Source: Amphiscolops sp. MND2022
Taxonomy: Eukaryota
Reading direction: 5' to 3'
Assembly: GCA_964187785.1 (NCBI GenBank)
Contig: OZ076409.1
Span: 35,652,001 to 35,716,000 of the forward strand
Length of the DNA stretch: 64,000 nt
In this document: positions 25,190 through 64,000 of the stretch, in pieces
Layout: each line of letters begins with the position of its first letter
Position numbering within the stretch: position 1 is the first letter of the stretch
Translations under genes and position numbers: made by a program
Notes under the pieces: generated by a model
Told to the model about the DNA's origin: nothing
What the model saw: only the letters and a program-made list of their open reading frames with translations
The model's database searches: none

Positions 25190-25489
25190 CATCTAAAAAG
25201 AGCGCGCAAACAACTGTACCATTTAGTGTAGAGGGCAACTGTAATAATACAGCACTGGCTATATTGTAACATTCAATTTGCGAACCGCTGAGCTGAAAGA
25301 AGTTTCACCGTTTTTACTGAACACTAGTTCTGAAGAGTCTAACACCAAGAACGTCAAGGTATTGAGATGATGTTTCTTGAACATTTTTGCAATTATTAGT
25401 TTTGTTGCTTCTGAATTTGTTTTGCTTACTATGATGTTCTTTTCCTTTGTTCTTTCTCCGATAGCAAATTCTGTTTTTAACCTTCAGGG

Positions 25490-28400
25490 ACTTGCTAGAA
25501 ACTTTCTCGAGAGCCGCTTGGATCTGTTTATACACCGGCGGTGCTCAGGTTGTTTTCTTCCCGAATGCGAAACACTGTTTGATGAGCTTTGAAGGTATTC
25601 GACATTTGAGAACGGTTTGCTGAATTGCTTTTGATTAATCAAGCACTCTAAATAAATATATATACAGACAATCAAGCAGGAGGCAATCATTGTTAAATGA
25701 AGTTACCCAATTCCTCTACGAAAAGAAGGTTTTGGTTTGAGAGAGCAGGAAAACTTTGAATAGGAAGACCAGAAAAAAACTTGATTAAAAAGTCAGAAAC
25801 ACCATTTAATTCTCAATTTCATTGGTTAGCTTTAGATGAAACATTTCTACGTAGAGTTATCATTATTGGGGACTCGAATTTTGTGCGGTGCGTGTCACAT
25901 TTCGTGGAATCACATCTCTTAACAGCTGCAGTTCAAGTGAGTAGTTCGTTCGTTGAAAGTTACATGATGTTCGATTGATTCTAATGAACGAGTCGAATTG
26001 TCAGTAGCAATGGACAATGGTATCCTGGAAAGGGATTGCGGGCTAAGTTTCCGGGGGCTACGTGCAATGAGCTTCATCGTCCGACGTTATCCTTTTCTGT
26101 GAAAAAAACAGACCTGAGCCAGCATCCTTGGACTGTCAAAAAGCCAGATGTAGTAGCCAGCTTCCAGCGTTTCAAGAACGTATGTGTTGAACAACAGCAG
26201 GGTGTTGTTCTTGTTAGAATTGGGCTTCTTCAGAAGGCCAGACGCTATACTCTCTCTTGTACAACAAACAAATCAATTACTGTATCAAGGTATGCCTCAT
26301 TGCTATGCCAGCCCAAGAGACATTAGAGACTCGGGACATATCGGAAAAGATAATGTTCACTTTTGATTTTGAGTGTTTACCAGGCTGCCCGACTATTCAA
26401 CTGTATAATTGAACCAGTTTCATGATTGTTTTCGTTTGGTTCTAAAGTTGGCTGTTTCCTTCTCCTGATGTTCCGTGAACTGATGTTTAGGTTTCCCTTT
26501 TCAGCGTTGAAATCCCTTAGAAGAGAGTCATGAACTTGCACGAGCTTGCGTTAACGAGAATCGCAAAAAATTTCCTAGAAATCCGCTGGGATGTTTCTGG
26601 CATCCGAGGAGTTCAAGGGTTGTTGCTTCCCTGATGCCTATGAATGTATGCTGAGCCTTGGAGAAAGTGAAACTTTTTTCATTGAAAACGGTGTTTGTAG
26701 TTGCTGAAAATTCTATGGATAAAGTTGATAGACTGCCAAAAATGTGTTTTCTACAATTTGTGAATTATGTTTTCATCAGTACCTCTAAATATGTATACCT
26801 TAGATCGTTGAAAAACCGAAAACCTCAAGATCATTAAGTTAGCACATTTTAAATCTTTGCGTTTCGAAAGCTCAAATTGCCTAATCCAAATCTTCTGTCT
26901 GAGCGTGAGTTGTCGCAAAGAAGATGTCAAGTTGTCTATAAAGGATGATTTAAAGACAAACTCCTTCGATTTTGCAGCTTTGAAACTCCAGTTTTTTCGA
27001 CTGATGGTTCACAACCATCTCATTTACACATGGTTCTCTGTTCTAGATAAATAACCCCCTTTTGTTTGGAAACTTTGTTTGGTAACGTTTGTGTGGACTC
27101 GGTTAACGAGACATGCTAGAAACTTTCTCGAAAACAGCTTGGATCTGTTTTTACACCGGCGGTGTTCAGGTTTGTTTCTTCCGAAATGCGAAACACTGTT
27201 TGCAGAGCCTTGAAGGTTTTCGACATTTGAGAACGGTTTCCTGAGTTGCTTTTGAATAATCAAGCACTCTAAATAAATATATATACAGACAATCAAGCAG
27301 GAGGCAATCATTGTAATATGAACAGTTACCCAATTCCTCTGCGAAAAGTTTGTTTTGGTTTGAGAGAGCAGGAAAACTTTGAATAGGAAGACCAGAAAAA
27401 AACTTGATTAAATAGTCAGAAACACCATTTCATTCTCAATTTCATTGGTTAGCTTTAGATGAAACATTTCTACGTAGAGTTGTCATTATTGGGGACTCGA
27501 ATTTTGTGCGGTGCGTGTCACATTTCGTGGAATCACATATCTCTTAACAGCTGCGGTTCAAGTGAGTAGTTCGTTCGTTGAAAGTTACATGATGTTCGAC
27601 TGATTCTAATGAACGAGTCGAATTGTCAGTAGCAATGGACAATGGTATCCTGGAAAGGGATTGCGGGCTAAGTTTCCGGGGACTACGTGCAATGAGCTTC
27701 ATCGTCCGACGTTATCCTTTTCTGTGAAAAAAAACAGACCTGAGCCAGCATCCTTGGACTGTCAAAAAGCCAGATGTAGTAGCCAGCTTCCAGCGTTTCA
27801 AGAACGTATGTGTTGAACAACAGCAGGGTGTTGTTCTTGTTAGAATTGGGCTTCTTCAGAAGGCCAGACGCTATACTCTCTCTTGTACAACAAACAAATC
27901 AATTACTGTATCAAGGTATGCCTCATTGCTATGCCAGCCCAAGAGACATTAGAGACTCGGGACATATCGGAAAAGATAATGTTCACTTTTGATTTTGAGT
28001 GTTTACCAGGCTGCCCGACTGTTCAACTGTATAACTGAACCAGTTTCATGATTGTTTTCGTTTGGTTCTAAAGTTGGCTGTTTCCTTCTCCTGATGTTCC
28101 GTGAACTGATGTTTAGGTTTCCCTTTTCAGCGTTGAAATCCCTTAGAAGAGAGTCATGAACTTGCACAAGCTTGCGTTAACGAGAATCGCAAAAAATTTC
28201 CTAGAAATCCGCTGGGATGTTTCTGGCATCCGAGGAGTTCAACGGTTGTTGCTTCCCTGATGCCTATGAATGTATGCTGAGCCTTGGAGAAAGTGAAACT
28301 TTTTTTCATTGAAAACGGTGTTTGTAGTTGCTGAAAATTCTATGGATAAAGTTGATAGACTGCCAAAAATGTGTTTTCTACAATTTGTGAAATATGTTTT

Positions 28401-30463
28401 CATCAGTACCTCTAAATATGTATACCTTAGATCGTTGAAAAACCGAAAACCTCAAGATCCCTAAGTTAGCACATTTTAAATCTTTGCCTTTCGAAAGCTC
28501 AAATTGCCTAATCCAAATCTTCTGTCTGAGCGTGAGTTGTCGCAAAGAAGATGTCAAGTTGTCTATAAAGGATATCTTAAAGACAAACTCCTTCGTTTTT
28601 GCAGCTTTGAAACTCCAGTTTTTTCGACTGATGGTTCACAACCATCTCATTTACACATGGTTCTCTGTTCTAGATAAAAAACCCCCTTTTGTTTGGAAAC
28701 TTTGTTTGGTAACGTTTGTGTGGACTCGGTTAACGAGACATGCTAGAAACTTTCTCGGAAACAGCTTGGATCTGTTTTTACACCGGCGGTGTTCAGGTTT
28801 GTTTCTTCCGAAATGCGAAACACTGTTTGCAAAGCCTTGAAGGTTTTCGACATTTGAGAACGGTTTCCTGAGTTGCTTTTGAATAATCAAGCACTCTAAA
28901 TAAATATATATACAGACAATCAAGCAGGAGGCAATCATTGTAATATGAACAGTTACCCAATTCCTCTGCGAAAAGTTTGTTTTGGTTTGAGAGAGCAGGA
29001 AAACTTTGAATAGGAAGGCCAGAAAAAAACTTGATTAAAAAGTCAGAAACACCATTTCATTCTCAATTTCATTGGTTAGCTTTAGATGAAACATTTCTAC
29101 GTAGAGTTATCATTATTGGGGACTCGAATTTTGTGCGGTGCGTGTCACATTTCGTGGAACCACATACCTCTTAACAGCTGCGGTTCAAGTGAGTAGTTCG
29201 TTCGTTGAAAGTTACATGATGTTCGACTGATTCTAATGAACGAGTCGAATTATCAGTAGCAATGGACAATGGTATCCTGGAAAGGGATTGCGGGCTAAGT
29301 TTCCGGGGGCTACGTGCAATGAGCTTCATCGTCCGACGTTATCCTTTTCTGTGAAAAAAACAGACCTGAGCCAGCATCCTTGGACTGTCAAAAAGCCAGA
29401 TGTAGTAGCCAGCTTCCAGCGTTTCAAGAACGCATGTGTTGAACAACAGCAGGGTGTTGTTCTTGTTAGAATTGGGCTTCTTCAGAAGGCCAGACGCTAT
29501 ACTCTCTCTTGTACAACAAACAAATCAATTACTCTATCAAGGTATGCCTCATTGCTATGCCAGCCCAAGAGACATTAGAGACTCGGGACATATCGGAAAA
29601 GATAATGTTCACTTTGATTTTGAGTGTTTACCAGGCTGCCCGACTGTTCAACTGTATAATTGAACCAGTTTCATGATTGTTTTCGTTTGGTTCTAAAGTT
29701 GGCTGTTTCCTTCTCCTGATGTTCCGTGAACTGATGTTTAGGTTTCCCTTTTCAGCGTTGAAATCCCTTAGAAGAGAGTCATGAACTTGCACGAGCTTGC
29801 GTTAACGAGAATCGCAAAAAATTTCCTAGAAATCCGCTGGGATGTTTCTGGCATCCGAGGAGTTCAAGGGTTGTTGCTTCCCTGATGCCTATGAATGTAT
29901 GCTGAGCCTTGGAGAAAGTGAAACTTTTTTCATTGAAAACGGTGTTTGTAGTTGCTGAAAATTCTATGGATAAAGTTGATAGACTGCCAAAAATGTGTTT
30001 TCTACAATTTGTGAATTATGTTTTCATCAGTACCTCTAAATATGTATACCTTAGATCGTTGAAAAACCGGAAACCTCAAGATCCCTTAGTTAGCACATTT
30101 TGAATCTTTGCCTTTCGAAAGCTCAAATTGCCTAATCCAAATCTTCTGTCTGAGCGTGAGTTGTCGCAAAGAAGATGTCAAGTTTTCATAAAGGATATTT
30201 TAAAGACAAACTCCTTCGTTTTTACAGCTTTGAAACTCCAGTTTTTTCGACTGATGGTTCACAACCATCTCATTTACACATGGTTCTCTGTTCTAGATAA
30301 ATAACCCCCTTTTGTTTGGAAACTTTGTTTGGTAACGTTTGTGTGGACTCGGTTAACGAGACATGCTAGAAACTTTCTCGAAAACAGCTTGGATCTGTAT
30401 TTACACCGGCGGTGTTCAGGTTTGTTTCTTCCAAATGCGAAACTGTTTGCTGAGCCTTGAAGG
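25490..30463. repeat. Tandem triplication of a ~1.63-kb unit inside WDFY intron 4
   Basis: Same ORFs recur at 26184, 27810 and 29436 (period 1626); a diverged partial copy follows at ~30810-30950. Confidence 0.95.
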
Positions 30464-50026: not shown

Positions 50027-51078
50027 CTATAACAAACGAAATCCTCCTATAAGCTCTCAAATATGTGGATTCTGTACCTCTTTTCATTCAATCAATAACA
50101 TCTGTTATTTTCGGTAGGTTGTTATATTCATCATCTTGAAACGTTCAAATTGTGTTACTATTGTGTTACTAGAGTGGGACAGTAACTTCCCAGGTTGACC
50201 CTCTTACTAGCATATTGGCTGTCTTGGCAAGATCTTGCCAAATTCTTACTATATCTTGGCGACCATGGAACCCATGGCAAGGTTTTTATTAAGATCTTAC
50301 TAAGATGATACATTATTCCAAGATCTTATCTTGTAACGATGGACAAAATTCTAAGATTATAAAAAACACTATACCTTCGATACAAACAGCCGAGACTCAA
50401 TCTAAAGGCTCATTACACCCAATAACGACTATTTCTACTCGTTTTCGTAATCAAAATGCTTCGACTTGTTGAAACAAATTTGAATGCAAAAATGTGCGAA
50501 AATTACGATAACGTATTCTGGCTTCCGAAATTCTGACGAAAATCCTAATAACTCCTCACCTGTTTAAGACTGAGAAATGTGAATGTACCAAATGAGAGCT
50601 CACTTCAAGAGCTTTTGAAAACTTGTAACTTTTCTGACGCAGTTGTTGGTAACGGTTTTGCAATTATGGAATAATTTAACCAGTGCCTCTCTCAATAAAG
50701 AGCATAAGGACTCTTCACAATCAAATTTTATACCTTGCTAACAGGAAATTGTCATGTCAAGCAATGTAAATCTGCCTAGATGTTTGAAAATAAAATGAAC
50801 AAGACGAGAACGTCTACAGTCAGCGCTATATCTAAGCCCCAAAAAGCGCAACACTTTTCCGAAAACTTCAAATTTTTTTCTTTTGGATAATGTCGCATCG
50901 TTCCAAAAAATGTAAAAGGGTAAAATGTATTTTGTATCTGAATGAAAGCGCTGGAATAAAGTTTCGCAATATGGAAATGAAAAACAACAAAGAAAGTGTT
51001 GCAATCACAGCACTGACATTAATCCCAAAAGGGAGCTTTTGAACTTCTCAGGGAAGATCTTAAAAGAAGGGGGTGATA

Positions 51079-53361
51079 TTACAAGTGAGTGATAGGTTGT
51101 TCGATTTCGTCATAAGGGTTACTATGAGTAGTACGCTTTTGCATTTTAGAGGTTGATGGAGTGATTTGGTGGTGTAGTTTATTTACTTTTGTAACTGGTA
51201 CTACACAGTGTTTTCCACTGCCAATATTGGGGTCAGCCATGGCATCATGGAAATCATCGTCGTGAACAGTTAAAAGAGGGCGCAGTTTGATTTTCTTATT
51301 TGTGGTTTTATCATGGTGTGTGAATGAAAGAAGACGTCTTAGAGGGGCGTATCGAAAATACAAGAATGTAAATAAAATGTGAAGCGCCATTGATATGATA
51401 AAAGAAACTATGCCCATGATTATTGTTGTGCGAAAATTAGCGAGAGAATCAAATTTTTCACTATACATATTCTTCATGTGAGTCATTTTGATTGCTACTG
51501 GTTTAGCAATTTGATGGAGTGTGTCGTCATCTTTTGCGAGTGCAGGTGACACATATTGTATTTCGTCTTTGATTGATTTTAGGAGCGCAATGTTTGCTTG
51601 GCTTCTCGTTGCATACATTGGCAATTCATCAATGGATGGGAGAGCAGTGAGAACGTTTGATAGAGGAACTGGTAAATCTACATTCATGATGGTTGCAGGG
51701 ATCTTCGAACAGCTCTGCAAATCATAACGAATCCTGATGTTGGGACCCGAAATCTGCTTTCCACAAGCAAGCGTGACGACGCATATTCGGCATCCAGGGA
51801 AGCTTGAAGATCCAACTGGGGTTGAGGAATTCATATACGATTCTGTTAAAGTATAGTCAGCGGAAGCGGCGGTTATTAGCCAAATGCCATATCTGAGGCT
51901 AACAGCACGTTCCTTGATGGGCAAGGTCACAGGTTTCACGTCGCATACCTTCATGGCTTGCACTAAGTTCCCAAAGAAGAGGAGACTGAGACAGGAGGAT
52001 TGGACTCCTTCTGTCGCAAGACCCTCGTGACAGATGCTATAACGCGAGGAACCAATACACATGTCCAATTGATTCCTGGAGATAAGGGCTGTTTCTCGAC
52101 CATCTTCCGATACAGCCAGGTACTCAGATTCAATCTCCCATTGAATCGCTTCAACATCATCCACCTGGGGCATGGGAAGTGGGAGAGCCTGGTAGGTGGT
52201 CATAACAGTCCTTCGGGAGGCCAGAGGTATGGACATTGTCAGCATTAATCCATGTGGCAGAGTCAAGACATCTTGCAGTAATTGAGCTTCGTAATAGGAG
52301 AGTAACTCCTGAATTGGAATGGCAAGAGTCAGACGGTCCAAAGCACGGATTTGTTGAATGGCAACTTTATTTAGAACAATTTCGAGAGACTCCTTGCTTA
52401 AAAGTGACATAGGGACGTACTTGCTGAGAAGAGCTGGAATACTATTCAGCAAGTTTATTCTGTATGCAAAAAGAGCAGCTCGGTAGCTCTTAATGTTCGA
52501 ATAAAACAATGAAAGCAAAGAAGAAACCGTATCGAAGTTGAAGTTGATCTGCTGTCTGGAGTACAGCATCTGATCGCAGTTTCTCATGAGGTGCATGTCC
52601 TGTTTGAAGGTATCCATTTGGGTTGCCATTACTTCCCAGTTTGCATTCTGTATAGATCGCATTTGTTCCTGAAGATCATGCAGTTTGTGTAGCTCTTTAC
52701 TGACGATATAGAACTTGTCATTCGTTTCTTCATTAAGTTCTTGAACACTGTCAGACAATGAAGAAGCTACGTCAAACAAGCGGTTAATGTTTGCAGCATT
52801 TTTGTCAGATTGACAGCTACCAAAGATTCCACTAAGCCCGCAACTGCCTGGACCCATTGTTATTCCAGCACCGAAAAGTCCAATTGCACCCAGTGCGGCG
52901 GCAGCAGCTGGTACAGCTCTCTTGGTGCGGTCAGCAGAATTGGGAGAAATGGGCTTCAAGAATGAGGCAGTTTCCTGTTGCATGGATTGGAGCTCGGCAG
53001 TGGCAGCATCTATCTCGTTCTGTACTTCCTTCCTTAGCCAGTCAACATTGAACCCTTCCATGGACAGATTTGTAAATTTCAAGTTGCAGTTATACGATGG
53101 CATTTTCCAAAGAGTTTCCAAAACAGATGTTAAATGAGTTAATTCCTTTTGAATTTGTACATCGAATTGAGGAAATGGCAATAGAAACTGGATATTCACA
53201 AATTTTTCGGCTAACAAGATCTTCTTGTCTTCATGAAAGATTATCCCTTTTTTAAGGGGGCCATCAGAGGTGTCATATGGTAATACCGGAGATTGTAGGT
53301 GTACCAATGACATAAGGGAAAGAAAAACAAGAAGTTTAAAGGTGATGAGGCGAAAGTCCAT
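51079..53361 (-). CDS. env: Envelope glycoprotein, class I fusion protein-like (760 aa)
   Basis: Signal peptide; furin site RTKR then A/G-rich hydrophobic fusion peptide AVPAAAAALGAIGLFGAGITMG; heptad repeats; Cys-rich region; TM IIMGIVSFIISMALHILFTFLYF; cytoplasmic tail. Confidence 0.9.
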   Translation of the reverse strand: MDFRLITFKLLVFLSLMSLVHLQSPVLPYDTSDGPLKKGIIFHEDKKILLAEKFVNIQFLLPFPQFDVQIQKELTHLTSVLETLWKMPSYNCNLKFTNLSMEGFNVDWLRKEVQNEIDAATAELQSMQQETASFLKPISPNSADRTKRAVPAAAAALGAIGLFGAGITMGPGSCGLSGIFGSCQSDKNAANINRLFDVASSLSDSVQELNEETNDKFYIVSKELHKLHDLQEQMRSIQNANWEVMATQMDTFKQDMHLMRNCDQMLYSRQQINFNFDTVSSLLSLFYSNIKSYRAALFAYRINLLNSIPALLSKYVPMSLLSKESLEIVLNKVAIQQIRALDRLTLAIPIQELLSYYEAQLLQDVLTLPHGLMLTMSIPLASRRTVMTTYQALPLPMPQVDDVEAIQWEIESEYLAVSEDGRETALISRNQLDMCIGSSRYSICHEGLATEGVQSSCLSLLFFGNLVQAMKVCDVKPVTLPIKERAVSLRYGIWLITAASADYTLTESYMNSSTPVGSSSFPGCRICVVTLACGKQISGPNIRIRYDLQSCSKIPATIMNVDLPVPLSNVLTALPSIDELPMYATRSQANIALLKSIKDEIQYVSPALAKDDDTLHQIAKPVAIKMTHMKNMYSEKFDSLANFRTTIIMGIVSFIISMALHILFTFLYFRYAPLRRLLSFTHHDKTTNKKIKLRPLLTVHDDDFHDAMADPNIGSGKHCVVPVTKVNKLHHQITPSTSKMQKRTTHSNPYDEIEQPITHL

Positions 53362-53796
53362 GGTGGTGTGATCGGGTGATCAACTAAATTTGGTTCTTTT
53401 GTACAAATTTGGAACTTTTGGTGATTTCTTGAATAAAGTTTAACTTTCAAAGATACTTGTTTCTAGATCGGTTCGCAAAGAAGTGAGGCGTGGTAATGTT
53501 TACATCCGGAGATGAGGAAGTTCGGTCATTTCAATATTTGAACCAAACATTTGTTCATTTGCGATTATATCGAGTAGTTTGTTTCAACTCTTGAAGTTCC
53601 TGCTTTCTTTTAAACAGTCTGTTTATTTGTTTGAGTCTTCTACTTTAGTTTCACAAGTGAGTACACATGTTTGAGTAGTTTTCGAGTTTTTCAGAGTCTG
53701 TGTGTTGTCTTAGGACAAATTTGAATCTAATCTAAAAAGTCAAGTTGTCTAAGCTAAAATCTACAGTCGAAGTCTTCTAAAGTCTACAGTCAAAAG

Positions 53797-54048
53797 ATGT
53801 GTGACATCGTGTCGTTTCTCAAGTTTGTCCTTTTGTGTTGTCCTGAAGGGACTTACGTTAAAGAAGGAGATCGGATGATCTCGTTTAAAAGAGAAAGGGA
53901 CAGCAGGTGCCCTCCTCTTATTATTCAGTCAGAGTCAAAAGTTGACACGGAGTCAGTTCTGTTGGTCTTCGTCATCATAGGGATGATCAGTCTCTTGCTA
54001 ATGTATTATATGTACAAAGTGTATAAAGCTTTCGGACGTCAACGTTAG
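53797..54048 (+). CDS. Putative 83-aa single-pass membrane protein, antisense within the retroelement
   Basis: Hydrophobic run VLLVFVIIGMISLLLMYYMY followed by basic KVYKAFGRQR; no recognised homology. Confidence 0.45.
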   Translation: MCDIVSFLKFVLLCCPEGTYVKEGDRMISFKRERDSRCPPLIIQSESKVDTESVLLVFVIIGMISLLLMYYMYKVYKAFGRQR

Positions 54049-54342
54049 TGTACAGTTAGAGAGTCGAGTCAGATGTCAGTCAGTTAAAAACTAAACTAAT
54101 TCTAAACTATAGATGTATCTAGTGTATAACTGTAGTTAGTTGTATTTTTATAGTTTTATACAGTTTTGTAGAGTTTTGTATAGTCAGTTTTTGTATATAA
54201 GTGTAGAGTTGTATAATCGAGTTTGTATATAGTCGCGAAATTCAGTATTTCGTGAAGAAAGAGTTTTCTATAGGATCTAATAGTTATAGTGAAGTTTTTG
54301 GCTTGATTTTCGTCAGTGTTGCTCATTTAGGAATTGTAAATC

Positions 54343-55728
54343 ATGGATATGTATCTGCGGGAAGCTATTATGAAATATCTTGAGACTCAAGAAGTCAACG
54401 ATGTTGTCTTGGCAACCGCAGAGAAAATGAAGAATTTTCGTCGGTTCTGTGATACCCTTATCTTGAAAGACAACAAATTGCTGTGCAAGGGAAGGTCTGG
54501 TGAAGAACCGAAGGTGATCCCTACCCCTCAACAAGTGGACGAATGTCTATTTGAACATCATGTGGGGCATCTGGGTAACCACCTAACGGACAGACAAACC
54601 CTTGTGAAGGCATTGTCTAATGCAGGTTATGGGTATCCGGTCCGATTTGGGGGGCTCGCAGCTCTTGTGGACGAGTGAGTAAAAACGCGAATTTTGCACA
54701 ATGTTGGACAACAGGCAAGTAGAAATGGCATGATCATTTACAGGTTTCTCCGGAATTGTCAAACCTGTTTCTTTTCCGGGGTCGCAAGACCAAGGGAAAG
54801 AATGTTTCCTGTGTCAGTGGCTAGGCGAATTGAGCTTTGTGCGAAATTCAACTATACCTGTCAATGGGAAGAGGTTGGATCCTCTAGGACAGGCGAGACA
54901 ACGATGGAGTTAGACAGTCCACGGAAGAAAGAGCCTATCGGAAAACTAGCGGAAGTCGGAGGGGAGTGTTTCTTCTCCTCCATTTATTACCTACTAGTCG
55001 GGCGAAAGTCTGGTAAGAGAATATCACATAGTTGGAAAAAAAACTAAGATTTTTTTTGTTTTTTTTTTTGTTAAAAAGTGAAAGCGACTAATATGAATGT
55101 GTGTGCAGATCGACATAGCACTAACGAGACCAAGAAGTGTCGTGCTATTCGGATAGCGGCCATGGAAGTAGCGAAAGACGCCGCGTTCAAGAAGTTCTGC
55201 AAAGAAACTCTTGGAACGGCAATTAGCGACTTCATGGCTCAGGAATGTGCCAAAGCGACAGTAGCCGTCACTGAGCACGGGGTTAGGAAAAATATGGTCA
55301 GAATGAAAAGTAGTAGAGTACATAGAGGCGAAATGTGTAAAAAATGCAACATTTTCGCAGATGCTGGCCACAGCAACACTCCTGCAGACTGACATTGCAG
55401 TATACTGGCAGTATCAGAATGGAGGGGGCTGGGTCAGATACCGTTATGGAGAGGAGTCAAAGGGCCGAACTGGGGTATTCCTGCTTCAGTGCATTCAGGG
55501 CGGTCGAGGCCACTATGGTGCATTCCATTGTGAACCCCTATGGGACTATCCTGAAGCTTAGTGAGTGAAATCACAAAAAACGAAAAAAGCAGAAATTGGT
55601 TGTTCGGGGAACATTGTGTATTTTTTCGCAGTGTAATGCCTTTAAAACGACATCGGGGGCTCACGCAGGAACCCTGGGACAGCGACGAAGCTGAGGGAGC
55701 GGTGGGAGGGAGTTCCACGGCTATTTGA
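54343..55728 (+). CDS. Antisense 5-exon gene, join(54343-54674,54744-55012,55109-55281,55361-55560,55632-55728), 356 aa: integrase/Ginger-like H2C2 zinc-binding domain plus OTU-like cysteine protease domain
   Basis: Four short GT-AG introns (69, 96, 79, 71 nt) all restore frame; splicing joins HH.GHLG.H... to FLRNCQTC and builds GGECFFSSIYYLLVG...IR...TEHGMLATATLLQTDIAVY...W...GHYGAFHCEPL. Confidence 0.8.
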
Positions 55729-56331
55729 CGACAAAAAATGTAAGTTAAAATCATCCAAAAATTTGAAAAGCATGTATAAGGTCAGTTTTTTGACGGAAAA
55801 ATCAATGAAAATAAGATAAAATTGTACCAAATATAGGGTTATAGGGTACCATTAGACGCGTATTGAAGAGAAAAATCCAATGGGGCCATTTGCAAGGGTC
55901 TACGACCAACCAGTGTGGAGAAATAGGCAAAAAACTGAAATTTTCCAAGTTTGGGTCAAAAATGGGACGTAAGACAAGAATTTAAAAATTTTTGTCTCCA
56001 ATTTTCGATTTTTATGGCTTAATCGGTCTATGGGGTCAAAATATGTCGATTGGGCAAAAACCAGAGGTATCCAAAGTGATTTGGTGAAGTTAGAGACCAA
56101 AATGTGCGGCTAATCTGAGGTATTTTTCGTAAGCAAATTTTTGATCAAATTTTCACTATGGAAAAGTACGGGGGGTCGGAAGGACGGTAGGAATGGATTC
56201 TCCTGGGGCTAACAAAGATAACGGTACCAAAATTATGCGGCTCCGATAAATATTTGTGGAGAAAACTTGAAAAAATGACGAAAAATGTCACTTTTTTGGT
56301 CAAAACTGGTCGATTTTTGGGATTTTGTGGA

Positions 56332-59300
56332 CTATTTCCACGGGGGATTGTGAAAAAATGAGGTTTTTTTCGGTTTTTGGCGTAATCTGGTATCACGCTG
56401 AGGCGATTGTGAGGATTGTTGAGTCGTACGATCATATATCGATGGTATGATTACATCTGGATAGCGTTCTTGAAGTGTTAATTCAGCATTTGGGGTTTGG
56501 GCTGAGGAGTCACAAAGTGAGCTTCTAGGCGGCGGAGGGGGGTAAAATGGTGATTGGGCCTCAAATTGAGGGTGGCTAGGATGAAGTGGAGTGCTAGAAG
56601 CCATGTGGGAGGTCTGAGTCAAAATGCGAGGTCTAGTTGACATAGTACGTGATATAGGGGAAATCGGTCTTGGTATTCTAGATTGGAAAGAAGGTGGTGG
56701 TGACACCATAGTCGGTAAAGGGGCACTCGGAAGGGTGCTCGGGTGGGTATAGGTTACAGTGGTGTGTGTTGAACCACCTTGAGGGTTATAAGAAGGTCTA
56801 TTGAGACAACGATCCGCTCGGGACAAAGTTTGACTATCGAAACCCAAAAATGTTGAATTTGATGAATTTATGTCTGATGAAGAATATATACGGGAAGGTG
56901 TTCGAGATCTAGTCAAAATGCTAGAGGAAGGGTCACACAGCGGTGGAGTTGCATGTGAAACCACAAAAGCATCAGAATTGTCAGTAGACGACGAATACTG
57001 AGCATTATCATCACTAGAACTGGTGTCTAAAGCGACATCATCTAGTGTGAAATTGTGGTTTACTGGGAGTTCATTAAGATCATCCTGTGGCGGTGCCTGG
57101 TTCAAAGGCGGAGCCATGGGAGGCTGGGGTGCCAAAGGAGGCGCGGGAGGTGCAGCTGGGGGTGCTACACGACGCGGAGTGTAATAAAATAAAACACTCG
57201 GAGCATCAGTAATTTCGTCTGTAGGTGTAAACGACTTGTCAGTTAAAAGATCAGGTAATGTACTGTCAAAAAGGGACGGTTCCGACGTGTGTCTAGTGGA
57301 CGGATCCGGAACGAAGTTATTTTGATGGATTTGGGCTAAACCTTCAATCTGATACTGAGGGTTAACGGGTCCAAGTCGGATACGGTGTACACATTGTGTG
57401 TAGTTCGTACCAACTTTTCGGACAATATAGTTTGAGTTTGTCAAAACTTGTTCTACTCGGTATAGAGGAAGCCATTTGGCTAAAGATTTTCCCATATGGT
57501 CGTTAACATTGGATAATTTGGGATTTAAAAGTAGACAGTAACGGTGTTTTGTCAAAGGGGCGGCGTTCGCTTTTCTATCGTAGAAGTGTCTATATTTGTT
57601 ATATGCGGTGATAGTGGCATCACGCGCAGCAGAGAACACTTCATTCATCCGATCTTGCATCGAACTAGTGAATTCGTATCTGGTTTCAAGGTTCTGGAGC
57701 GTTCGTAAATTAAAACGGACATCTAGCGGTTTTACCGGTTCACGGCCATGGAAAAGATAAGTTGGAGTACAACCTATTGATACATGGTATGACGTATTGT
57801 GAACAAAAGTCGCTAAGTCGACATACGTGTGCCAGTCCTTTTTGATTTTGTTTTCATAAATTCCAAGATACTGCTTGAGAGACGCATGAGTGCGCTCGAC
57901 GGAGCCAACTGTTTGTGGATGTTTTACAGTGGCGTATTGCATTGTTATTTCAAGAAGTTTTGACAATTCAGTCATTACTTTAGCAGTAAAAGCAGTTCCC
58001 ATGTCAGAGAGTACAGTTTTGGGTATGTATGATGTTCGCATAAAAAGGTGAAAAAGCTGTTTGGCAACATTTGGGGCACTTGCATTTCGTAGAGGTATCG
58101 CAAAAAGATATTTTGAAAAAACATCCTTAGCAGTCAAAATATGAGTAAAGCCACCTGAATCTGGCAATTTCCCAACAATATCGACTTGAAGCAAGTCTCC
58201 TGGGAAATGCTGGTCCACAGCTAGGGACAGAAGCGGAGGCTTCAATGTGGCATGTTTGACTGGTTTGACTTGCAAACACGAAGAGCAGTTCTTGATATAG
58301 TTTGTCAAAAATTCTACAAAATTCGGAAAATAAAATTTTTGTCTAAAAATCTGAGCGGTTTTTGTGATACCGACGTGTCCTGCTGTTTTACTGTTGTGAA
58401 CACGGTACAGAAGTTCTGTACGTAAATGAGCAGGGACAACATATTGGCGGGTGATTGTATTTCCAGTATCATTAAAAAACTTTCGGTATAACACACCTTG
58501 GTAATTTTCCAATCGATTAAAATGTTTAAGGTATTTACGTAGTTCTGAACTCATGTATGGAGATGGGTCTGGAGGATGGGTTTCCATCCAATGTAACACT
58601 AGCTTGATGTTAGCATCTTTTTGTTGTTCCTCTCGGAGATTTAAAGAAGTCATCTTGTCAGTTAAATCAAATTCATCAAGAGGATTGGGAGCATGCAAAG
58701 CGTTCAGTGATTCAAAGGCTTTTGAGCAAGTGTTTCCAATTTTAAACGGCATGCAATCGTAGCGGATTGCGTTCACTGATTTATCTGGTACTTGCATTCC
58801 CATTTTTAGTGTTACATTTTTGACAGGTATTTGAGAATTAAAGCGGAGTTCAAGCTTTGTATGGGGGTGGACATGAATCCTAGACAAGTAATCCGCGGCA
58901 GCATTGGCTTTGCCCGGAATATGTCCAAGGACAAAATTAAAATTCAACACGTGGTCCACACAGGTCCAAAGACTAGATGGTATGGTCTTAGCTTGAAAGA
59001 AGCGTGTTAAACTACGGTTATCAGTTAAGACTAGTACTGGTTTAGTGCTACCCCACAAAATGTGTGCAAAAGTGTCAAAAGCAAAATGCACGGCCAAAAA
59101 TTCTTTAGCGTAGATAGACAGTTTCAGGTACGTAGGCGTGAAAATTTTCGATCCAAAAGAAACGGGGACGTAAGTTTTATAAGTTTTACCTGATTGGTCA
59201 GTAATGTAATCTTCTATCATTAGTACATAACCGGCAGCATAGAAACTTGCATCGGTTAGGATTACATACTGTGCGTTAGCTTTCGGTAATCTGAGAGATA

Positions 59301-61382
59301 AGGTACAAGCTTGTTCAAGATCTTTTCGCAAGGTTTCAATTTGTTTATGGTGTTCGTCTGTAAGAACAGTTTCGTTTTCTTGGCGTAAAAGTTTGTAAAA
59401 AGGTAGAAGTTTTTCTCCTAACTTAGGTATGAAAGCTCGAAAATATTGGAAAAACCCAATAAATCGGCGAATTGGTTTAGGCGTTTTCGGAACTTTGAGC
59501 GTAGACAAAAAGTCGGTTACTTTTTTCTTGTCTGGTTGCATACCTTCGTTGGTGATTGTGTTACCTAGAAAGGTCATTTCTTTCAATCCAAATTCACATT
59601 TACTTGGAGTAAACTTCAAACCTGCCTTCTCTATGCAAACAAAAATTGCTTTCAAGTTGTTAATGAATTCGTCAAAGGTGTTAGCAGCGGTGCCTAAGTC
59701 ATCTACGTATTGAAAGCATTGGTCTGCTACAATACAAGGGTAGAGATATTTACGCATAAAAGAGCTAAAAGCACTAACTGAGCGACTAAGTCCTTGTGCT
59801 AAGCGTAAATAGGCAAAAGTACGCGACAAAAAGTTAAAAGAGAGAAGCTGCACTGACAGAGGATCTGCCATTTGCAGTACGTGATATGCTTGGCTACAGT
59901 CAAGCTTTGCAAAGAATTTCTTTCCTGCTAAGTGTGCGCTTACGTCTGCTAACGTTGCAATCGGAAAATTATGGTTATCATAGTCATGTCGAATAAGGTG
60001 ATTTATTCGACGAAGATCTACCAAAAGACGGAGTTTACCAGAAGGTTTTCGAACTGCAAAGATGGGGCTAGAGTATTTCGAATACTTCAGTGTGGTTATC
60101 ACACCCCAATACTGTAACAAGGCTAGTTCTACTAACACTTCATCACGGTAATGAATCGGTGTAGGCGGTCCTTGAGTGTACATAGGTTCATCGTGTTCTG
60201 GCGTTAGTTTAACTTTGAAATCATCGTTTTTTCCAATGTCTAACCTATGTCTAGCAAAAATGTGGTGGTAGTCTAAGAGAAGGTTTTCTACTGTACGTCT
60301 TTGTTCACTATTAAACACGGAATTTTTCCACGGAAATTGAGCTAAGAATTTCTGTTTGTCTAAGGCGTTTGAGATAGGATCTAGTTTCTCTTCTTTTTTC
60401 AGTTGAACAATTTCATCGTAAATGCGTTTTTCAATTCCAGTCAATGTTTCTGGATTAGAACAATTTTCGGGAGTTGGAAACCAAAGCTCATCTGTCGACG
60501 GTGAAACTTTGATCTCCGAATCCTGAATAAGCGCATTAATGTTCTGGTTAAAGTAATTCGACAAAAGTTGTGGGTTTATAGGCTGTAGGTATTCGGCTTG
60601 TTTCGGTGTTAGTATCGTGATTCGTGCAATAACAGAATTTTTCTGAACGGTAACTTTATGAGGCAAAACATTCAAAATGGCAAGTGAAACATCTTGTTTT
60701 GCTTTAAGAGTTATGAGTGCACTAGTGACACAAAGTCCTGTTTGGTTTTCAAATTTAGCATGAGGTTCAATAATGGCTACGGTTCCATCTGGGTAGGAAC
60801 AGTTTGGAAAAGAACATTGAACTATTTCAGTAGTGTTCGGGTTTATCGATAAGGAACTGTTATTTCTCAAAAAATGGTTCTTTTTCGAAGAAACAGCATT
60901 AATTTTTCCATTTGTATGGATTTTTCGGTGAGTTGAAGAGTTAAATTGGGCAGTTTAAGAGTGCGACTCTTTGGGTGTATAGAAATGTCGTTTTTCTCAA
61001 AAAATGGAAGTCCAAGAATCGTTTGATTCATTGTCTTCAGTAGTAAGAAAGTGTCTGTAAATTTTTCGTTTGCAATGTTGAAAGTGGCTTTAAATGTGCC
61101 ATACGTAGGTACAAGTGATCCATTTGCTACTTTAATGGAGCTTGGTGTTGGATCGAAAATGGTTATACTGGTTGGGCTTTCTTTTTGAAGTTTTTTGAAA
61201 TTGTTTAGAGGCATAGCGCTACAAAATGCGCCTGTATCAATAAGAGCTTTAATAGGAAAGGTAAAGTTAATAGGTACTGAGAAAAGTGAAGTGCGAGGCT
61301 TTGAGGATAAAACATTAATAGAGGAAAAAGATGAAGGATTAGGTGAGGCAGAAAAAGAACGGGTTATGTGTGGCTTACCTAG
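56332..61382 (-). CDS. pol: Pol polyprotein (protease, dUTPase-like segment, RT, RNase H, integrase, long Pro/Ser/Thr tail); one frameshift near 60921-60925
   Basis: ALIDTGA protease in the -1 frame after gag; RT LAQG...QYVDD; RNase H TDAS...E..A...TDN...ADYLSR; H.GH...C..C, VDIVG, SDMG, GSVER integrase; 1512-aa uninterrupted ORF 56332-60870. Confidence 0.95.
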
Positions 61383-62584
61383 TTTTTTTGGTTCTGTGCC
61401 ATATTCGCATCATAGTAGGGTGACCAAGGTTGGGTCATCGGGTTGTATTGTGGCATCATCGGTGTAATCATCTGAGGTTGAGAGAATGACGGTTGGGGTT
61501 GGTAGTTGGAAAATTGTTGATAAGGTAATTGAGGCGGTTGGCGATTTTGTGGGCGAAACCAACATTGGGCAATTGTATGTCCAAATTTATTGCAGTGACT
61601 ACAATGGCGTTGAGAAGATTGAGCATTTCGATTGTTGTGGTTATTTCGTCCATTTTGCCAATTATTGTTGCGTTTCCCATTATTGTTGCGATTGTTATTG
61701 TTTTGGCGATTATTCCAGTTATTATTTCGCTTCTGGTTATTCCAATTCTGGTTATTACGTGGCTTGTTTTGTTGCTGATTTTGATTTTGAGAGTTTTGCT
61801 CGTTATTTTTCTGCTGGTTTTGATTTTGATTTTGCTGCATCAGCTGATTTATTGTAGGCTGAATGGTTTTGGTTAAATCTCTGATTTCTTCAGAAATTTT
61901 TGCAGTCTCTTGTTTCAAAGTATCATGAGCAACAGAGAGTGCTTGCAATCCTGACAAAAGTTCTTTATTTGAAGCTGGACTTACTTCATTGAATGCCGTA
62001 TCATCATCCTCTGGATAGAGGCGATCAACGATCATTCTACTGGCAGCTTTTGCGCAGAGATCCTCGATTGTCGTGTCTTCTGGCTGTGTCATCAGAAATC
62101 TTCTGAGTTTGATTGGCATTCCGTTTATGAATGCTTCTCGTACTCGTCTCGCTCTCTCGAGTGCTCTATTTTCAGCAGCAACTGCGGGTCGTCCTCCTGC
62201 AGCAGCTCTGGCAACGACGTTAGGGTAAGCCTCCAATGCCAAACGTTGGAGGTCAGTGAGGAAGTCTTGGGCACTTTCCTCGGACGATTTCAATTTTCTG
62301 GCTGAAAAGATGAGTTTCTGCAATTGAACGGGCTGGTCGTTCTGGTATCTCTCACGAAGTGCAGCTACGGCGAGATCATAGTCAACTCTCGTGGCTTCGG
62401 GCAGTTGATCGAAGAATGTTAATGCACCACCTTTAAGGTGCAAATGCAGATACTGATGACGATCAGCATCGGCAATGCCTGCAATTTGGATGCAGCTTGC
62501 AAGTTGTCTGAGGAACTCATTTAAATTTTCTTTTTCCGTACCCTTAAAGGGTTGAAGATTTACAAAAGGTTGAATTGCGGCCAT
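61379..62584 (-). CDS. gag: Gag (401 aa) with N/Q-rich region and one CCHC knuckle
   Basis: Capsid-like L.GGAL.FF...L.ERY...ES..DF...L..LA; CSHCNKFGHTIAQC zinc knuckle. Confidence 0.93.
   Translation of the reverse strand: MAAIQPFVNLQPFKGTEKENLNEFLRQLASCIQIAGIADADRHQYLHLHLKGGALTFFDQLPEATRVDYDLAVAALRERYQNDQPVQLQKLIFSARKLKSSEESAQDFLTDLQRLALEAYPNVVARAAAGGRPAVAAENRALERARRVREAFINGMPIKLRRFLMTQPEDTTIEDLCAKAASRMIVDRLYPEDDDTAFNEVSPASNKELLSGLQALSVAHDTLKQETAKISEEIRDLTKTIQPTINQLMQQNQNQNQQKNNEQNSQNQNQQQNKPRNNQNWNNQKRNNNWNNRQNNNNRNNNGKRNNNWQNGRNNHNNRNAQSSQRHCSHCNKFGHTIAQCWFRPQNRQPPQLPYQQFSNYQPQPSFSQPQMITPMMPQYNPMTQPWSPYYDANMAQNQKN
61382..61388 (-). promoter_or_regulatory. -1 ribosomal frameshift slippery heptamer A AAA AAC at the gag/pol junction
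   Basis: CAA AAA AAC TAG ends gag; the -1 frame is open through to the DTG protease motif. Confidence 0.8.
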
Positions 62585-62821
62585 TTAGAAAGAAGTATTG
62601 TTTTTTATCAAGAGCGATTTGAATTTGTCAGAAGAAAGCAATGAAATTTTGTTGAAATGAATTTTATTATTCAGTCAGCAGCAGAAGTGAAGAGAAGAGG
62701 TATTGTCAGCATTATCAGCAATCTGAGATGTTATTGTTAGTGAAGTGAGTTCACTGTAGAGAGAGTGGCACTTGAGCATTGTTATATTTTAAGTGATTTT
62801 GGTTTCTGGAGAAAAGGAGAA

Positions 62822-62836
62822 CAGCTCCTGTCACCA
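62822..62836 (-). promoter_or_regulatory. Primer binding site TGGTGACAGGAG (tRNA-Leu-like by inference)
   Basis: TGG directly follows the LTR-terminal ...GACA; resembles the Leu-type PBS TGGTGTCAGGAG. Confidence 0.75.
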
Positions 62837-63248
62837 TGTCATAGATCAAAGATTTAGGCAGAGCGGTGGAAAAGTTTTATTCATTTTGGCAATTCTTCTA
62901 GGAGCTGAAGGGTTCTCTCCTATAGAGATTCTCCGGAAAGTGAGAGTTGATGTTTTGAATAATTAATTAGAGTGTTTCAGAGAGATGAAGGTATTTACAA
63001 AATGTAAGAAGGAGTTTAGCATAGTTGAAGATATACTCAAAATATCGAAAAGAAATGATAGAGGTTCTGGTTGAACGTGTTTATAGTTCACTAGTTCTCT
63101 CAGTTGTGTCTTGGGTCCACTTCCAGTGCTACAGAGGCTTTCCCATCGTATGCGTGTTGATCTGTGATTGGCTGCCACATCTGATTAGTCCACGTCTGTC
63201 CTGAGAATACTTGAACGAAATTTTGTACATGATTCTTGTATCATGACA
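62837..63248 (-). repeat. 5' LTR (412 bp)
   Basis: Terminal inverted repeat TGTCAT...ATGACA; abuts the PBS on one side and interrupted HINE sequence on the other. Confidence 0.85.
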
Positions 63249-64000
63249 GGGACCCTTTGGGATTTATTAACATATATTCAGAGACCTTGAGACATTGAAA
63301 AAATTTCGGAAAAAAGTCGGACAGTGCCGAAGAAATCGAAAGGGGTGACCCTTTAGTCTCGTCCGGTTTTGTAGGTTACTTCAAAAAAGTTAAAAAAGAA
63401 AGGGATGACCCTTCGCACTAAGTTGGCACTGGCCGATTTGGCCTTAGGGAGTTTCAAGAGTTTCTCTAAAAAGTGAACCGATCAGTGTGAGGTCTGTGGT
63501 CTGAAGAAAAAAGTCATTGTTATAGTCGGGCATTTTTCCCTTAAAGGAAAAGCGCCGACTAAAAAACTACCCAGGTTGCAGAGGGGGCTTGTCAAAAAGG
63601 TGGGTAAGGTGTCGATACGCTACAAGCTGCAGAGCCTCCTTGCAGTGTCAATAACGGTCCTGTGAAAACAAATTTGAAAACCTCGGTAAGTGGAGGACTA
63701 ATTTCTAAAACAAAACACCGGATCGCAAAGTAGATGCTCGTCTATAAAACAGCGTATCACAATTGAGTTGCTCGTTATGAAATTACTGAGAGCTAGAGAG
63801 CCTCCCCCTTTGACGATTGCGCTCATAGAGGACTGGTTGGTTTTTGTTGACTTCCTTTCAGATTTTTTCTGGCTTAATAGGATTTAACAATGAAATTTTT
63901 CTTGGGAACATGGCTCTCTTGATAAGATCTTACCGTGGCAAAATGAATACCATGGCAAGACCTTGACAGGATCTTAGCCAAGATTGTTCCAAGATCTTAC

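Follow-up and report, generated by a model that had tools for sequence, protein, structure and literature searches.

Accessory genes separate complex retroviruses from simple retrotransposons, and to our knowledge few of them are known outside the vertebrate retroviruses. The antisense gene HBZ of the complex retrovirus HTLV-1 starts in the 3' LTR, codes for a bZIP regulator and also exists in a spliced form. In engineered antisense-intron indicator cassettes the sense RNA cannot splice the intron of the antisense gene, and the intron thereby passes through reverse transcription. A review mentions an antisense promoter of HTLV and describes, for the plant Gypsy elements Grande (gene23), RIRE2, Retand and PvRetro13, additional ORFs that lie antisense in the interval from pol to the 3' LTR (PMC7264820). 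Ginger1 transposases possess an integrase-like H2C2 module, a DDE core, GPY/F and a C-terminal OTU or Ulp1 domain, with zero to four introns (PMC2836005). An OTU domain has also been described in Helitron/Helentron elements (PMC6431247), and VTD deubiquitinases in transposons (PMC9741609).

The gene described here was identified in a window of 64,000 nucleotides, the whole stretch of DNA that was analysed. The best explanation, with a probability of roughly 0.7, is that it represents a real accessory gene carried by an env-bearing Ty3/Gypsy-like element and spliced by the host at four introns, whose 356-residue product would combine an integrase-N-terminal-like part with an OTU-like part.

Gene structure and host element

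The antisense gene (54343-55728, plus strand) consists of five exons joined via four GT..AG introns into one frame. The spliced coding sequence of 1071 nt comprises 356 codons and a stop, without an internal stop. The originally predicted structure, one 356-residue frame from five plus-strand exons and four canonical introns of 69-96 nt, was thus reproduced, and conservation puts the frame beyond chance. Exon 1 (54343-54674) starts with the ATG at 54343, contains codons 1-110 and two further bases, and encodes the bulk of the integrase-N-terminal-like module including the invariant His73 and His80. Intron 1 (54675-54743; 69 nt, gtgagt..cag, phase 2) interrupts the HHCC module. It is followed by exon 2 (54744-55012), with the CxxC pair (Cys116, Cys119), a linker and the Cys loop GGEC-FFSS holding the invariant Cys186, and by intron 2 (55013-55108; 96 nt, gtaaga..cag, phase 1). 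Exon 3 (55109-55281) covers the helical central part of the OTU-like domain. Behind intron 3 (55282-55360; 79 nt, gttagg..cag, phase 0), exon 4 (55361-55560) supplies the helix ML-T-A..L..D..V-W-QY and the invariant F-H-C-E-P (His314, Glu316). Intron 4 (55561-55631; 71 nt, gtgagt..cag, phase 2) precedes exon 5 (55632-55728), which contains the C-terminal tail and the TGA stop. All these features lie on the plus strand, all four acceptors are cag, and the GC content is 46-58% in the exons and 26-39% in the introns. A TCAGT motif, which we take to be the initiator consensus, lies 28 nt upstream of the ATG (54313-54317, plus strand) and is kept in the alignment between subfamilies A and B; it is a possible transcription start of the antisense gene.

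The host element is classified from its sequence as an env-bearing Ty3/Gypsy-like LTR element of about 13.7 kb. Its pol ORF (56335-60954, minus strand, 1540 aa) converges tail to tail with the antisense gene and encodes reverse transcriptase (RVT_1, residues 301-467), RNase H (532-659) and an integrase with Integrase_H2C2 (840-898) and rve (918-1013) domains in Pfam, followed by a long Pro/Ser-rich tail. The minus strand also carries an aspartyl-protease-like ORF (60870-61409), whose scores of 20.9 bits for PF13975 and 19.1 bits for PF13650 both lie below the Pfam cut-offs, and a gag-position ORF of 401 aa (61382-62584) without a Pfam family. On the other side, the env-like ORF (51082-53379, minus strand, 766 aa) diverges head to head from the antisense gene. 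A signal peptide occupies its residues 8-34. Residues 151-154 read RTKR, the stretch after them (155-176) is hydrophobic and fusion-peptide-like, and residues 649-676 form a transmembrane segment. The amino acid identity of this ORF in subfamily B is 81-82%, and searches of Pfam and of PDB sequences gave no match for it.

The 5' LTR (62837-63248, minus strand) has a length of 412 bp and reads TG...CA on the element's strand. Directly inside it, a primer-binding-site-like sequence starting with TGG (62819-62836, minus strand) may be recognized. The 412-bp LTR occurs twice per copy in other copies, 13.7 kb apart on C13. A search for an LTR pair in the window and 8 kb beyond revealed no second LTR, because the window copy is truncated at 50936, with about 1 kb and the 3' LTR missing. 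At this breakpoint, 146 nt past the env stop, the homology to other copies stops, and 24 of the 39 non-self rows begin at query position 297-298. The stops of the antisense gene and pol are separated by a conserved non-coding block (55820-56330), whose identity to subfamily B is 70-87% and which has few gaps, one 60-nt window showing 2 gap columns. The interval 55760-56334 has no codon-position bias (48:55:45) and contains stops in all frames. No Rfam match was obtained for the block, and an Rfam scan of 50900-63300 gave a single sub-threshold miRNA row. This block may serve as a 3' UTR and/or as a cis-acting element of the genomic RNA.

Domains and proposed function of the product

The motifs quoted in the original prediction are present in the spliced protein. 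Its N-terminal part contains an H-x(n)-H ... C-x2-C pattern of putative zinc ligands, in which the H-H spacing varies from x5 to x14 among lineages. Across five lineages the residues His73, His80, Cys116, Cys119, Cys186, His314 and Glu316 are invariant. When the family profile is aligned with the integrase of the element itself, its H..H...CxxC pattern falls on the HHCC there (E 0.011 against 3 sequences). The nearest ESM-Atlas clusters of the module are all Integrase_H2C2 (score 0.92), and the AF2 model of the subfamily-B read-through ORF shows a pLDDT of 60-89 over residues 1-120. In these comparisons and in the model, the N-terminal part appears to resemble the N-terminal extension and HHCC zinc domain (NED+NTD) of the Ty3 and foamy-virus integrases, and it would be expected to bind zinc. 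No Pfam match to Integrase_H2C2 (PF17921) at the gathering score was obtained for exons 1 and 2 or for the ORFs P0001, P0029 and P0033, which are read-through pieces; therefore the module is called integrase-N-terminal-like and not a family member. The 356-residue protein lacks a DDE core, since it gives no rve match and its length leaves no room for one; the earlier description of an integrase-type module split by intron 1, devoid of a DDE core and with four ligands, proved accurate.

OTU proteases carry their catalytic Cys where the first helix begins, in a loop of the form G-x-C-[aromatic]-F-x-[SA]; their catalytic His is placed close to the C-terminal end of the domain, and the third residue is acidic or an amide. 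In alignments with OTU-positive sequences, Cys186 in the C-terminal half of the product falls on their GDGNC / NGNC loop. The principal evidence for the nature of this half is provided by a BEL/Pao-like element family of the same genome, which carries an intronless antisense ORF homologous to the cassette. This ORF family passes Pfam OTU (27.2 bits vs a cut-off of 23.3), scores 13.1 bits for Integrase_H2C2 (cut-off 25.5), and the best OTU matches of its model in the PDB are the nairovirus vOTUs and OTUD3. The ESM Atlas gave no usable match for this ORF, and longer fused forms of it were not found, which is weak evidence. The hhalign comparison of the five spliced lineages with the BEL/Pao-associated family gave a probability of 96.9% (E 1.6e-10, score 79.3, 252 columns), whereas the best of 30 column-shuffled controls scored 26.4; in the global alignment, His314 and Glu316 correspond to the H-V-D of the intronless family.

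The direct comparison of the cassette family with eight other OTU domains of the genome was weaker (E 2.2e-4, score 33.6, probability 45%), with the Cys loops aligned and the real score reached by none of 40 shuffles. The profile of exon 2 alone gave a probability of 19% against OTU (E 0.0012). An hhalign run with near-identical rows, an alignment of too little diversity, returned 7%, and the five divergent lineages were then used for the comparison with the BEL/Pao-associated family given above. Searches of the spliced protein against the OTU-bearing ORFs of the genome by phmmer and blastp gave weak matches (E 0.038 in a tiny database). Pfam OTU (PF02338) did not match single exons or read-through pieces, none of the 24 places listed by a six-frame whole-genome scan for the OTU model was at a cassette copy, and Foldseek returned no match at E<=0.001 for the model of the read-through ORF or of the BEL-type ORF.

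Through homology to the OTU-positive paralogue and the weaker direct match, the C-terminal half can be described as a putative cysteine protease domain of OTU-like papain fold, to which Cys186, His314 and Glu316 belong, and the protein may function as a deubiquitinase. The OTU-like assignment of the original prediction is retained in this form; its GHY histidine is not, being variable across lineages, and the conserved one belongs to FHCEP, with Glu at +2. The prediction was also right that Gly replaces the usual Asp of GDGxC. This is no sign of decay: the GGEC loop and HCEP are invariant across the five lineages, and the Gly is, on this comparison, a family trait.

The following mechanism is proposed. 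For its transcription the antisense gene presumably has an internal promoter of its own, and the host machinery would splice the four GT-AG introns of the antisense transcript. The introns would outlast retrotransposition because the genomic RNA is the opposite strand, on which they are not introns; such survival is well established and is exploited in retrotransposition reporters that contain an antisense intron. The integrase-like module may bring the protein to the element's integrase, to the intasome or to LTR-end DNA. There the OTU domain would strip proteins of the element or the host of ubiquitin or of a ubiquitin-like modifier, thereby shielding the replication and integration machinery from ubiquitin-dependent restriction or degradation. 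This combination of targeting by the integrase-like module and protective deubiquitination is the most likely mechanism, although it is put forward tentatively. The roles suggested in the original prediction, countering ubiquitin-dependent silencing or protecting the integrase, are likewise hypothetical. A broader reading, which we consider doubtful, is that two superfamilies of animal LTR retroelements (Gypsy-like with four introns and BEL/Pao-like with none) share an old antisense accessory-gene family downstream of pol. Its product would be an integrase-N-terminal decoy with an OTU domain, that is, an intasome-tethered deubiquitinase, and the antisense introns may be more than passengers, forming a host-like unit. 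If this is true, an intron-bearing unit expressed only from integrated DNA could blunt the surveillance of intronless reverse-transcribed DNA, a kind of surveillance that has been described for human HUSH (PMC8770142).

It is also possible, though unlikely, that the protein is selected without being a deubiquitinase. Its OTU-like domain might be a protease that processes a protein of the element or the host, or it might bind ubiquitin or serve as a scaffold without catalysis, and the main activity of the protein could be mimicry of the integrase N-terminus, for example as a trans-dominant regulator of intasome assembly limiting copy number. The N-terminal module is conserved as well as the OTU part and seems to resemble NED+NTD, which would suit such a role, as would the Gly before the putative catalytic Cys in all five lineages and the lack of a Pfam OTU match on any piece. 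Viral OTU/papain-like domains cutting polyproteins exist as well, arterivirus PLP2 and tymovirus PRO being virus-encoded examples. However, the paralogous BEL/Pao-like family varies the same position (Asp or Asn) and yet passes Pfam OTU, while Cys186 and His314-x-Glu316 remain invariant at 33% overall identity and Cys186 is kept in 21 of the 25 database fragments covering the Cys loop, a pattern as expected of an active Cys-His enzyme.

Conservation across copies

The preferred reading of a genuine, host-spliced accessory gene is carried mainly by conservation. The gene model was mapped onto 24 rows, namely the window copy and 23 other copies; the spliced frame is open in 15 of these rows, and all eight GT/AG dinucleotides are kept in 20. 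Subfamily B, which shares about 74% DNA identity with the window copy, is represented by six copies that keep a coding sequence of exactly 1071 nt with different intron lengths (75/84/78/72-73 nt). All introns of one subfamily-B gene are multiples of 3, and its unspliced read-through still holds stop codons. Between the window copy and copy L016, 858 of the 1071 exon positions are identical (80%, 0 gaps), as against 164 of the 299 intron positions (55%, 26 gap columns). The differences by codon position amount to 36:27:150, and the dN/dS ratio between subfamilies is 0.073-0.077 at a dS of about 1.2, in agreement with the anticipated value below 1. Compared to subfamily B, intron 1 shows 60% identity and its flanking exons 74-83%, exon 4 being the most conserved exon (87% at the DNA level). 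In lineages with protein identities of 47%, 34% and 33% the introns occupy the same positions in the same phases but differ in length; intron 1, for instance, keeps its position and phase in L047, L048 and L050 with lengths of 133, 92 and 62 nt. By these measures the antisense gene is under purifying selection.

That the function resides in the antisense RNA itself, through double-stranded RNA or small-RNA control of the element, with an incidental reading frame, is very improbable. Regulatory antisense transcripts of retroelements are documented in the review (PMC7264820), and a conserved non-coding block lies downstream of the gene. Nevertheless, neither a dN/dS of 0.07 nor the third-position bias would be predicted by such a function, nor would the absence of exon indels beside 26 intron gap columns or a frame open across lineages at 33-47% identity.

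The distribution of the cassette bears on an equally improbable explanation, an independent nested insertion such as a decayed Ginger1-like DNA transposon, which gains some appeal from Ginger1 transposases combining H2C2, introns and sometimes OTU (PMC2836005). The predicted antisense position between pol and the env-like gene is found in the window copy, and the same order, place and orientation recur in 10 of the 11 other loci, including the subfamily at 74% DNA identity. The antisense gene diverges together with pol and env. Around the cassette, terminal inverted repeats of convincing quality were not found (the best pair has 14-nt arms at 86%), and a DDE core is missing. A recent nested insertion in particular is contradicted. 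An older capture from a Ginger1-like transposon, as suggested in the original prediction, would be a speculative origin.

Each exon peptide matches at least 150 genome places (150 of 272 and 150 of 282 candidates were scored), with identities from 100% down to about 40%. A search of 1.84 billion representative proteins with the exon-2 profile gave 54 matches, all of them exon-sized or read-through fragments of 62-220 aa with one exception, a repetitive protein of 638 aa that was taken as spurious; a full-length intronless homologue was not found in this search. The read-through fragments all diverge directly after one common KS|G junction, that of intron 2. Judged by its distribution, the cassette is an old component common to many lineages and not peculiar to one copy.

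As a control for chance, the longest ATG-started frame with up to four GT..AG introns of 60-100 nt was determined: it reached 374 aa in the real region and at most 225 aa in 40 shuffles of that region, while in 60 same-length window segments outside the element the median was 221 aa and the longest frame 483 aa. Although 4 of the 60 segments reach at least 356 aa, so that the spliced frame by itself is not decisive, a chance joining of short ORFs has a negligible probability and is refuted by the conservation pattern (exon/intron contrast, dN/dS and kept intron positions). The comparative sequence evidence confirms the spliced antisense gene as real, and it is conservation, not frame length, that settles the point.

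Significance and comparison with known systems

With this gene, the known accessory genes gain a conserved antisense member with multiple introns, carried by an env-bearing Gypsy element of invertebrate type. Both domains are recognisable, and the function is therefore directly testable. The gene ties LTR retroelements to the recurring pairing of integrase-type enzymes with ubiquitin-type proteases in Ginger1 and Helitrons, and it offers a natural example of introns passing reverse transcription on the antisense strand. Such genes are missed by ORF-based annotation of retroelements; the family is present in the searched protein databases as exon-sized fragments only. A literature search, with Repbase Reports and most subscription journals outside its scope, revealed no antisense intron-bearing gene of the integrase-NTD and OTU type in an LTR element, a negative result that for this reason does not prove the gene to be unpublished.

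With Ginger1 the gene shares GT-AG introns and the presence of an integrase-type zinc module and an OTU-like protease in one mobile-element protein. There are major differences, however: the product has 356 aa instead of 500-800, the DDE core and own TIRs or TSD are absent, and the gene is an antisense passenger in an LTR retroelement having its own complete integrase. The antisense ORFs of plant Gypsy elements are likewise located downstream of pol, occur in most copies and presumably use their own promoter. Their proteins have no clear similarity to known ones and the word "intron" is absent from the text of the review (PMC7264820), whereas four conserved introns and two recognisable domains are present here, the host is probably an animal, and an env-like gene follows.

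HTLV-1 HBZ is also a protein-coding antisense unit in a retroelement, spliced on the antisense strand; in contrast, the present gene has an internal position and four introns, and its product is enzyme-like. The nairovirus L vOTU, the Helitron OTU (Helitron/Helentron OTU was found in this genome too) and the VTD share with it a parasite-encoded papain-fold ubiquitin-type protease, which is predicted in the present case. Those domains belong to large replication proteins or polyproteins, while here a separate small protein is fused to an integrase-N-terminal-like module. The principle of the engineered antisense-intron cassettes is the same, applied here to a natural, multi-intron and selected gene.

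Exon–intron structure and its conservation

The antisense gene (the cassette, 54343-55728, plus strand) consists of five exons at 54343-54674, 54744-55012, 55109-55281, 55361-55560 and 55632-55728, the last of which ends the frame with TGA. The four introns between them measure 69, 96, 79 and 71 nt; their donors are gtgagt, gtaaga, gttagg and gtgagt, respectively, and every acceptor is cag. Recomputed from the window sequence, the model given in the original prediction proved accurate, and splicing yields a CDS of 1071 nt and a frame of 356 aa. The GC content is 46-58% in the exons versus 26-39% in the introns. The spliced frame alone does not exceed chance. Dynamic programming, set to find the longest frame that begins with ATG and contains no more than four GT..AG introns (60-100 nt each), gave 374 aa in the cassette region, at most 225 aa in 40 shuffles of that region, and a median of 221 aa (maximum 483) in 60 control segments of the same length taken from the window outside the element; since four of these 60 reached at least 356 aa, it is the comparison with other copies that decides.

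In the genome searched (1.07 Gb, with the window at C1:35652001-35716000), at least 42 DNA matches to the cassette have been found (40 of 60 candidates scored), including about 20 copies at 90-100% identity to the window and a second group, subfamily B, at about 74%. The gene model was mapped onto 24 aligned rows, i.e. the window and 23 copies; the spliced frame is open in 15 rows and all eight splice dinucleotides are intact in 20. Six subfamily-B copies have a CDS of exactly 1071 nt, yet their introns measure 75, 84, 78 and 72-73 nt. Between the window and subfamily B, 858 of 1071 exon positions are identical with no gaps, 164 of 299 intron positions are identical with 26 gap columns, the differences at the three codon positions stand at 36:27:150, and the proteins share 85% identity. 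The dN/dS ratio (Nei-Gojobori), for which a value below 1 had been proposed as a check, is 0.073-0.077 between subfamilies at a dS of about 1.2. Inside subfamilies it is 0.32-0.37, as expected if copies decay once inserted. Comparative sequence analysis demonstrates a selected, protein-coding, antisense, intron-bearing gene. A TCAGT motif located 28 nt upstream of the ATG is common to both subfamilies and could conceivably have a promoter role.

In four subfamily-B copies (L016, L017, L018 and L020) the introns are 75, 84, 78 and 72 nt long; as each is a multiple of three, leaving them in does not shift the reading frame, and the only stops fall within introns 2-4; this may be a coincidence.

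The family extends to divergent lineages. The exon-2 and exon-4 peptides each match at least 150 genomic sites (150 of 282 and 150 of 272 candidates scored, respectively), at identities from 100% to about 40% and mostly within exon-sized open frames. Of four divergent copies read, L047, L048 and L050 (47%, 34% and 33% protein identity to the window, respectively) give complete or near-complete spliced models, with canonical GT..AG introns at the positions and phases of the window introns and of different lengths (133/68/84/79, 92/70/64 and 62/62/64 nt, respectively); the fourth, L049, has no usable intron-1 donor. Over five lineages, 60 of 356 residues are invariant, including His73, His80, Cys116, Cys119, Cys186, His314 and Glu316. 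In public protein collections the family is seen solely as fragments of intron-blind gene calls: a word-based search returned four proteins, and an exon-2 profile gave 54 matches among 1.84 billion representative proteins. The Cys loop was located by pattern in 25 of 53 fragments examined; its Cys is retained in 21 of these 25, and all diverge at one point, immediately past K-S|G, where the intron-2 donor lies.

Position within the host element

The genes of the element lie on the minus strand: a gag-position ORF (61382-62584), a protease-like ORF (60870-61409), pol (56335-60954; 1540 aa with RVT_1, RNase H, Integrase_H2C2 and rve) and, beyond the cassette, an env-like ORF of 766 aa (51082-53379). 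The latter possesses a signal peptide, an RTKR site with a hydrophobic, fusion-peptide-like stretch immediately after it, and a membrane anchor at the C terminus, the arrangement typical of viral fusion glycoproteins of class I or the F type; no sequence match to it was found in Pfam or PDB. The LTR (62837-63248, 412 bp, TG..CA) has a TGG-starting primer-binding-like site on its inner side. Two LTRs are present in other copies, 13.7 kb apart on C13; the window copy has no 3' LTR, and its homology to other copies ends at 50936, 146 nt past env.

The cassette and pol converge tail to tail across 606 nt, and the cassette and env diverge head to head across 963 nt. The order and orientation pol, antisense gene, env recur in 10 of 11 other loci, one of these ten having two cassettes in tandem and the remaining locus being rearranged, and no convincing inverted repeats were found around the cassette. 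A nested insertion is thereby contradicted; the cassette is an integral, old component of the element.

In the subfamily-B locus L014 (G000 C4:3830000-3839999), the stretch between pol and env holds two tandem copies of the whole cassette at a distance of 2338 bp, with one premature stop common to both. The pol tail, which extends for over 300 residues past the integrase (about 1200-1540; 56335-57900, minus strand), is a Pro/Ser/Thr-rich, low-complexity section without a Pfam match, with 62-79% amino acid identity between subfamilies versus 92-93% for RT. Between the stop codons of pol and the antisense gene, a block of roughly 500 nt (55820-56330) is 70-87% identical to subfamily B, almost gapless and more strongly conserved than the final part of pol; codon-position bias is absent and stops occur in every frame, and the block may be a cis-acting RNA or UTR element. 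A conserved island between env and the antisense gene (53830-53920; 88% in a 60-nt window) contains GTAAGT in its reverse complement and may serve as a sense-strand splice donor of the element or as a promoter element. Just past the truncated element end, a repeat of about 446 bp (50189-50634) shows about 90% identity to very many genome places (16,020 first-look candidates). Elsewhere in the window, tRNA-like SINE-type repeats recur (families D5 and D9-D12), and at 25489-30435 a unit of about 1626 bp occurs three times in a row, the copies being 90-100% identical.

Domains of the encoded protein

The N-terminal module contains an invariant H..H pair in exon 1, spaced by 5 to 14 residues, and an invariant CxxC in exon 2. 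Single cassette pieces gave no Pfam recognition of it; in a family profile its HHCC aligns onto that of the element's own integrase. For P0001, a database ORF of subfamily B running through intron 1, the predicted fold (24-row alignment) has a pLDDT of 60-89 over residues 1-120, and its ESM Atlas neighbours are Integrase_H2C2 clusters only (0.92, weak recognition). The module is, with moderate confidence, integrase-N-terminal-like, composed of an extension domain and a zinc domain and not assigned to the Pfam family Integrase_H2C2.

A six-frame genome scan with Pfam OTU marked 24 places, none of them cassette copies, and revealed an intronless ORF of 325-347 aa at L028-L032 (G000 C1:86.42 Mb, C3:92.75 Mb, C6:50.34 Mb, C5:12.73 Mb and C2:62.10 Mb, respectively). 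It is antisense and tail to tail with an integrase gene, about 190 nt from its end (in L028, ORF 606-1646 on the plus and integrase 1839-2999 on the minus strand). This integrase carries DUF5641, belongs to a different element from that of the window, and is presumably BEL/Pao-type. The ORF has the integrase-NTD-like and OTU architecture of the cassette, with a canonical GDGNC loop. Comparing profiles of five spliced cassette lineages and five members of the intronless family gave Prob 96.9%, E 1.6e-10 and a score of 79.3 over 252 columns (best of 30 column shuffles, 26.4; reversed, 15.9), and Prob 97.9% in global alignment. The aligned pairs, cassette first, are CxxC with CxxC, GGEC with GDGNC, the helix A-T-A-T-L-L-Q-T-D with A-A-A-S-L-L-G-I-D, and F-H-C-E with D-H-V-D. 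Against eight other OTU domains of the genome, three of them shown to be Helitron-type, the cassette profile reached E 2.2e-4 and Prob 45%, its Cys loop being matched to theirs, a score attained by none of 40 shuffles; exon 2 alone gave E 0.0012 against OTU (hhalign). The OTU assignment of the C-terminal domain is well supported but indirect, resting on profile homology. Of the two His candidates proposed for it, GHY is not conserved over the lineages and falls away, whereas the histidine in FHCEP is conserved. The Gly noted in place of the usual Asp before the Cys is indeed present and invariant over five lineages; in the intronless family that position is Asp or Asn.

At L035, L036 and L044 (G000 C13:25.89 Mb, C2:103.74 Mb and C1:3.61 Mb), open frames of 1600-2260 aa join an OTU domain at the N terminus to Helitron_like_N, with a PIF1 helicase domain in addition in L035; these are Helitron/Helentron-type elements of the same genome. 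Together with the BEL/Pao-type elements, such OTU-bearing Helitrons would point to an invertebrate as the host.

Possible role and comparison with known systems

Antisense introns survive retrotransposition when the RNA being replicated is the opposite strand, which is why those of the cassette persist; expression would then have to arise from DNA copies via an internal promoter. The Cys/His/Glu and HHCC sets of the protein are both strictly conserved. The integrase-like module may dock on integrase, the intasome or LTR-end DNA, where the OTU domain would strip ubiquitin-type marks, a reading to which we give a probability of about 35-40%. Alternatively, the product may act in processing as a protease, serve as a non-catalytic adaptor or mimic integrase in a dominant-negative manner. 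Its origin may lie in capture from a Ginger1-like transposon or in a retroelement integrase. For the docking reading, the link between integrase and OTU is plausible because Ginger1 transposases carry an integrase-OTU fusion (PMC2836005) and Helitrons contain OTU domains (PMC6431247); transposons also carry other deubiquitinases (PMC9741609).

An antisense, intron-bearing gene for an integrase-NTD-like and OTU protein in an LTR element was not found described in the full-text literature searched, the coverage of which is incomplete, and in the text of a recent survey of metazoan env-carrying Gypsy elements there is no mention of antisense genes or of OTU (PMC13524379). Plant Gypsy elements possess antisense additional ORFs downstream of pol, without recognisable domains; introns are unmentioned in that article (PMC7264820), in contrast to the four introns of the cassette. 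The component kinds of the combined architecture, antisense ORFs downstream of pol and transposon OTU domains, are already known.
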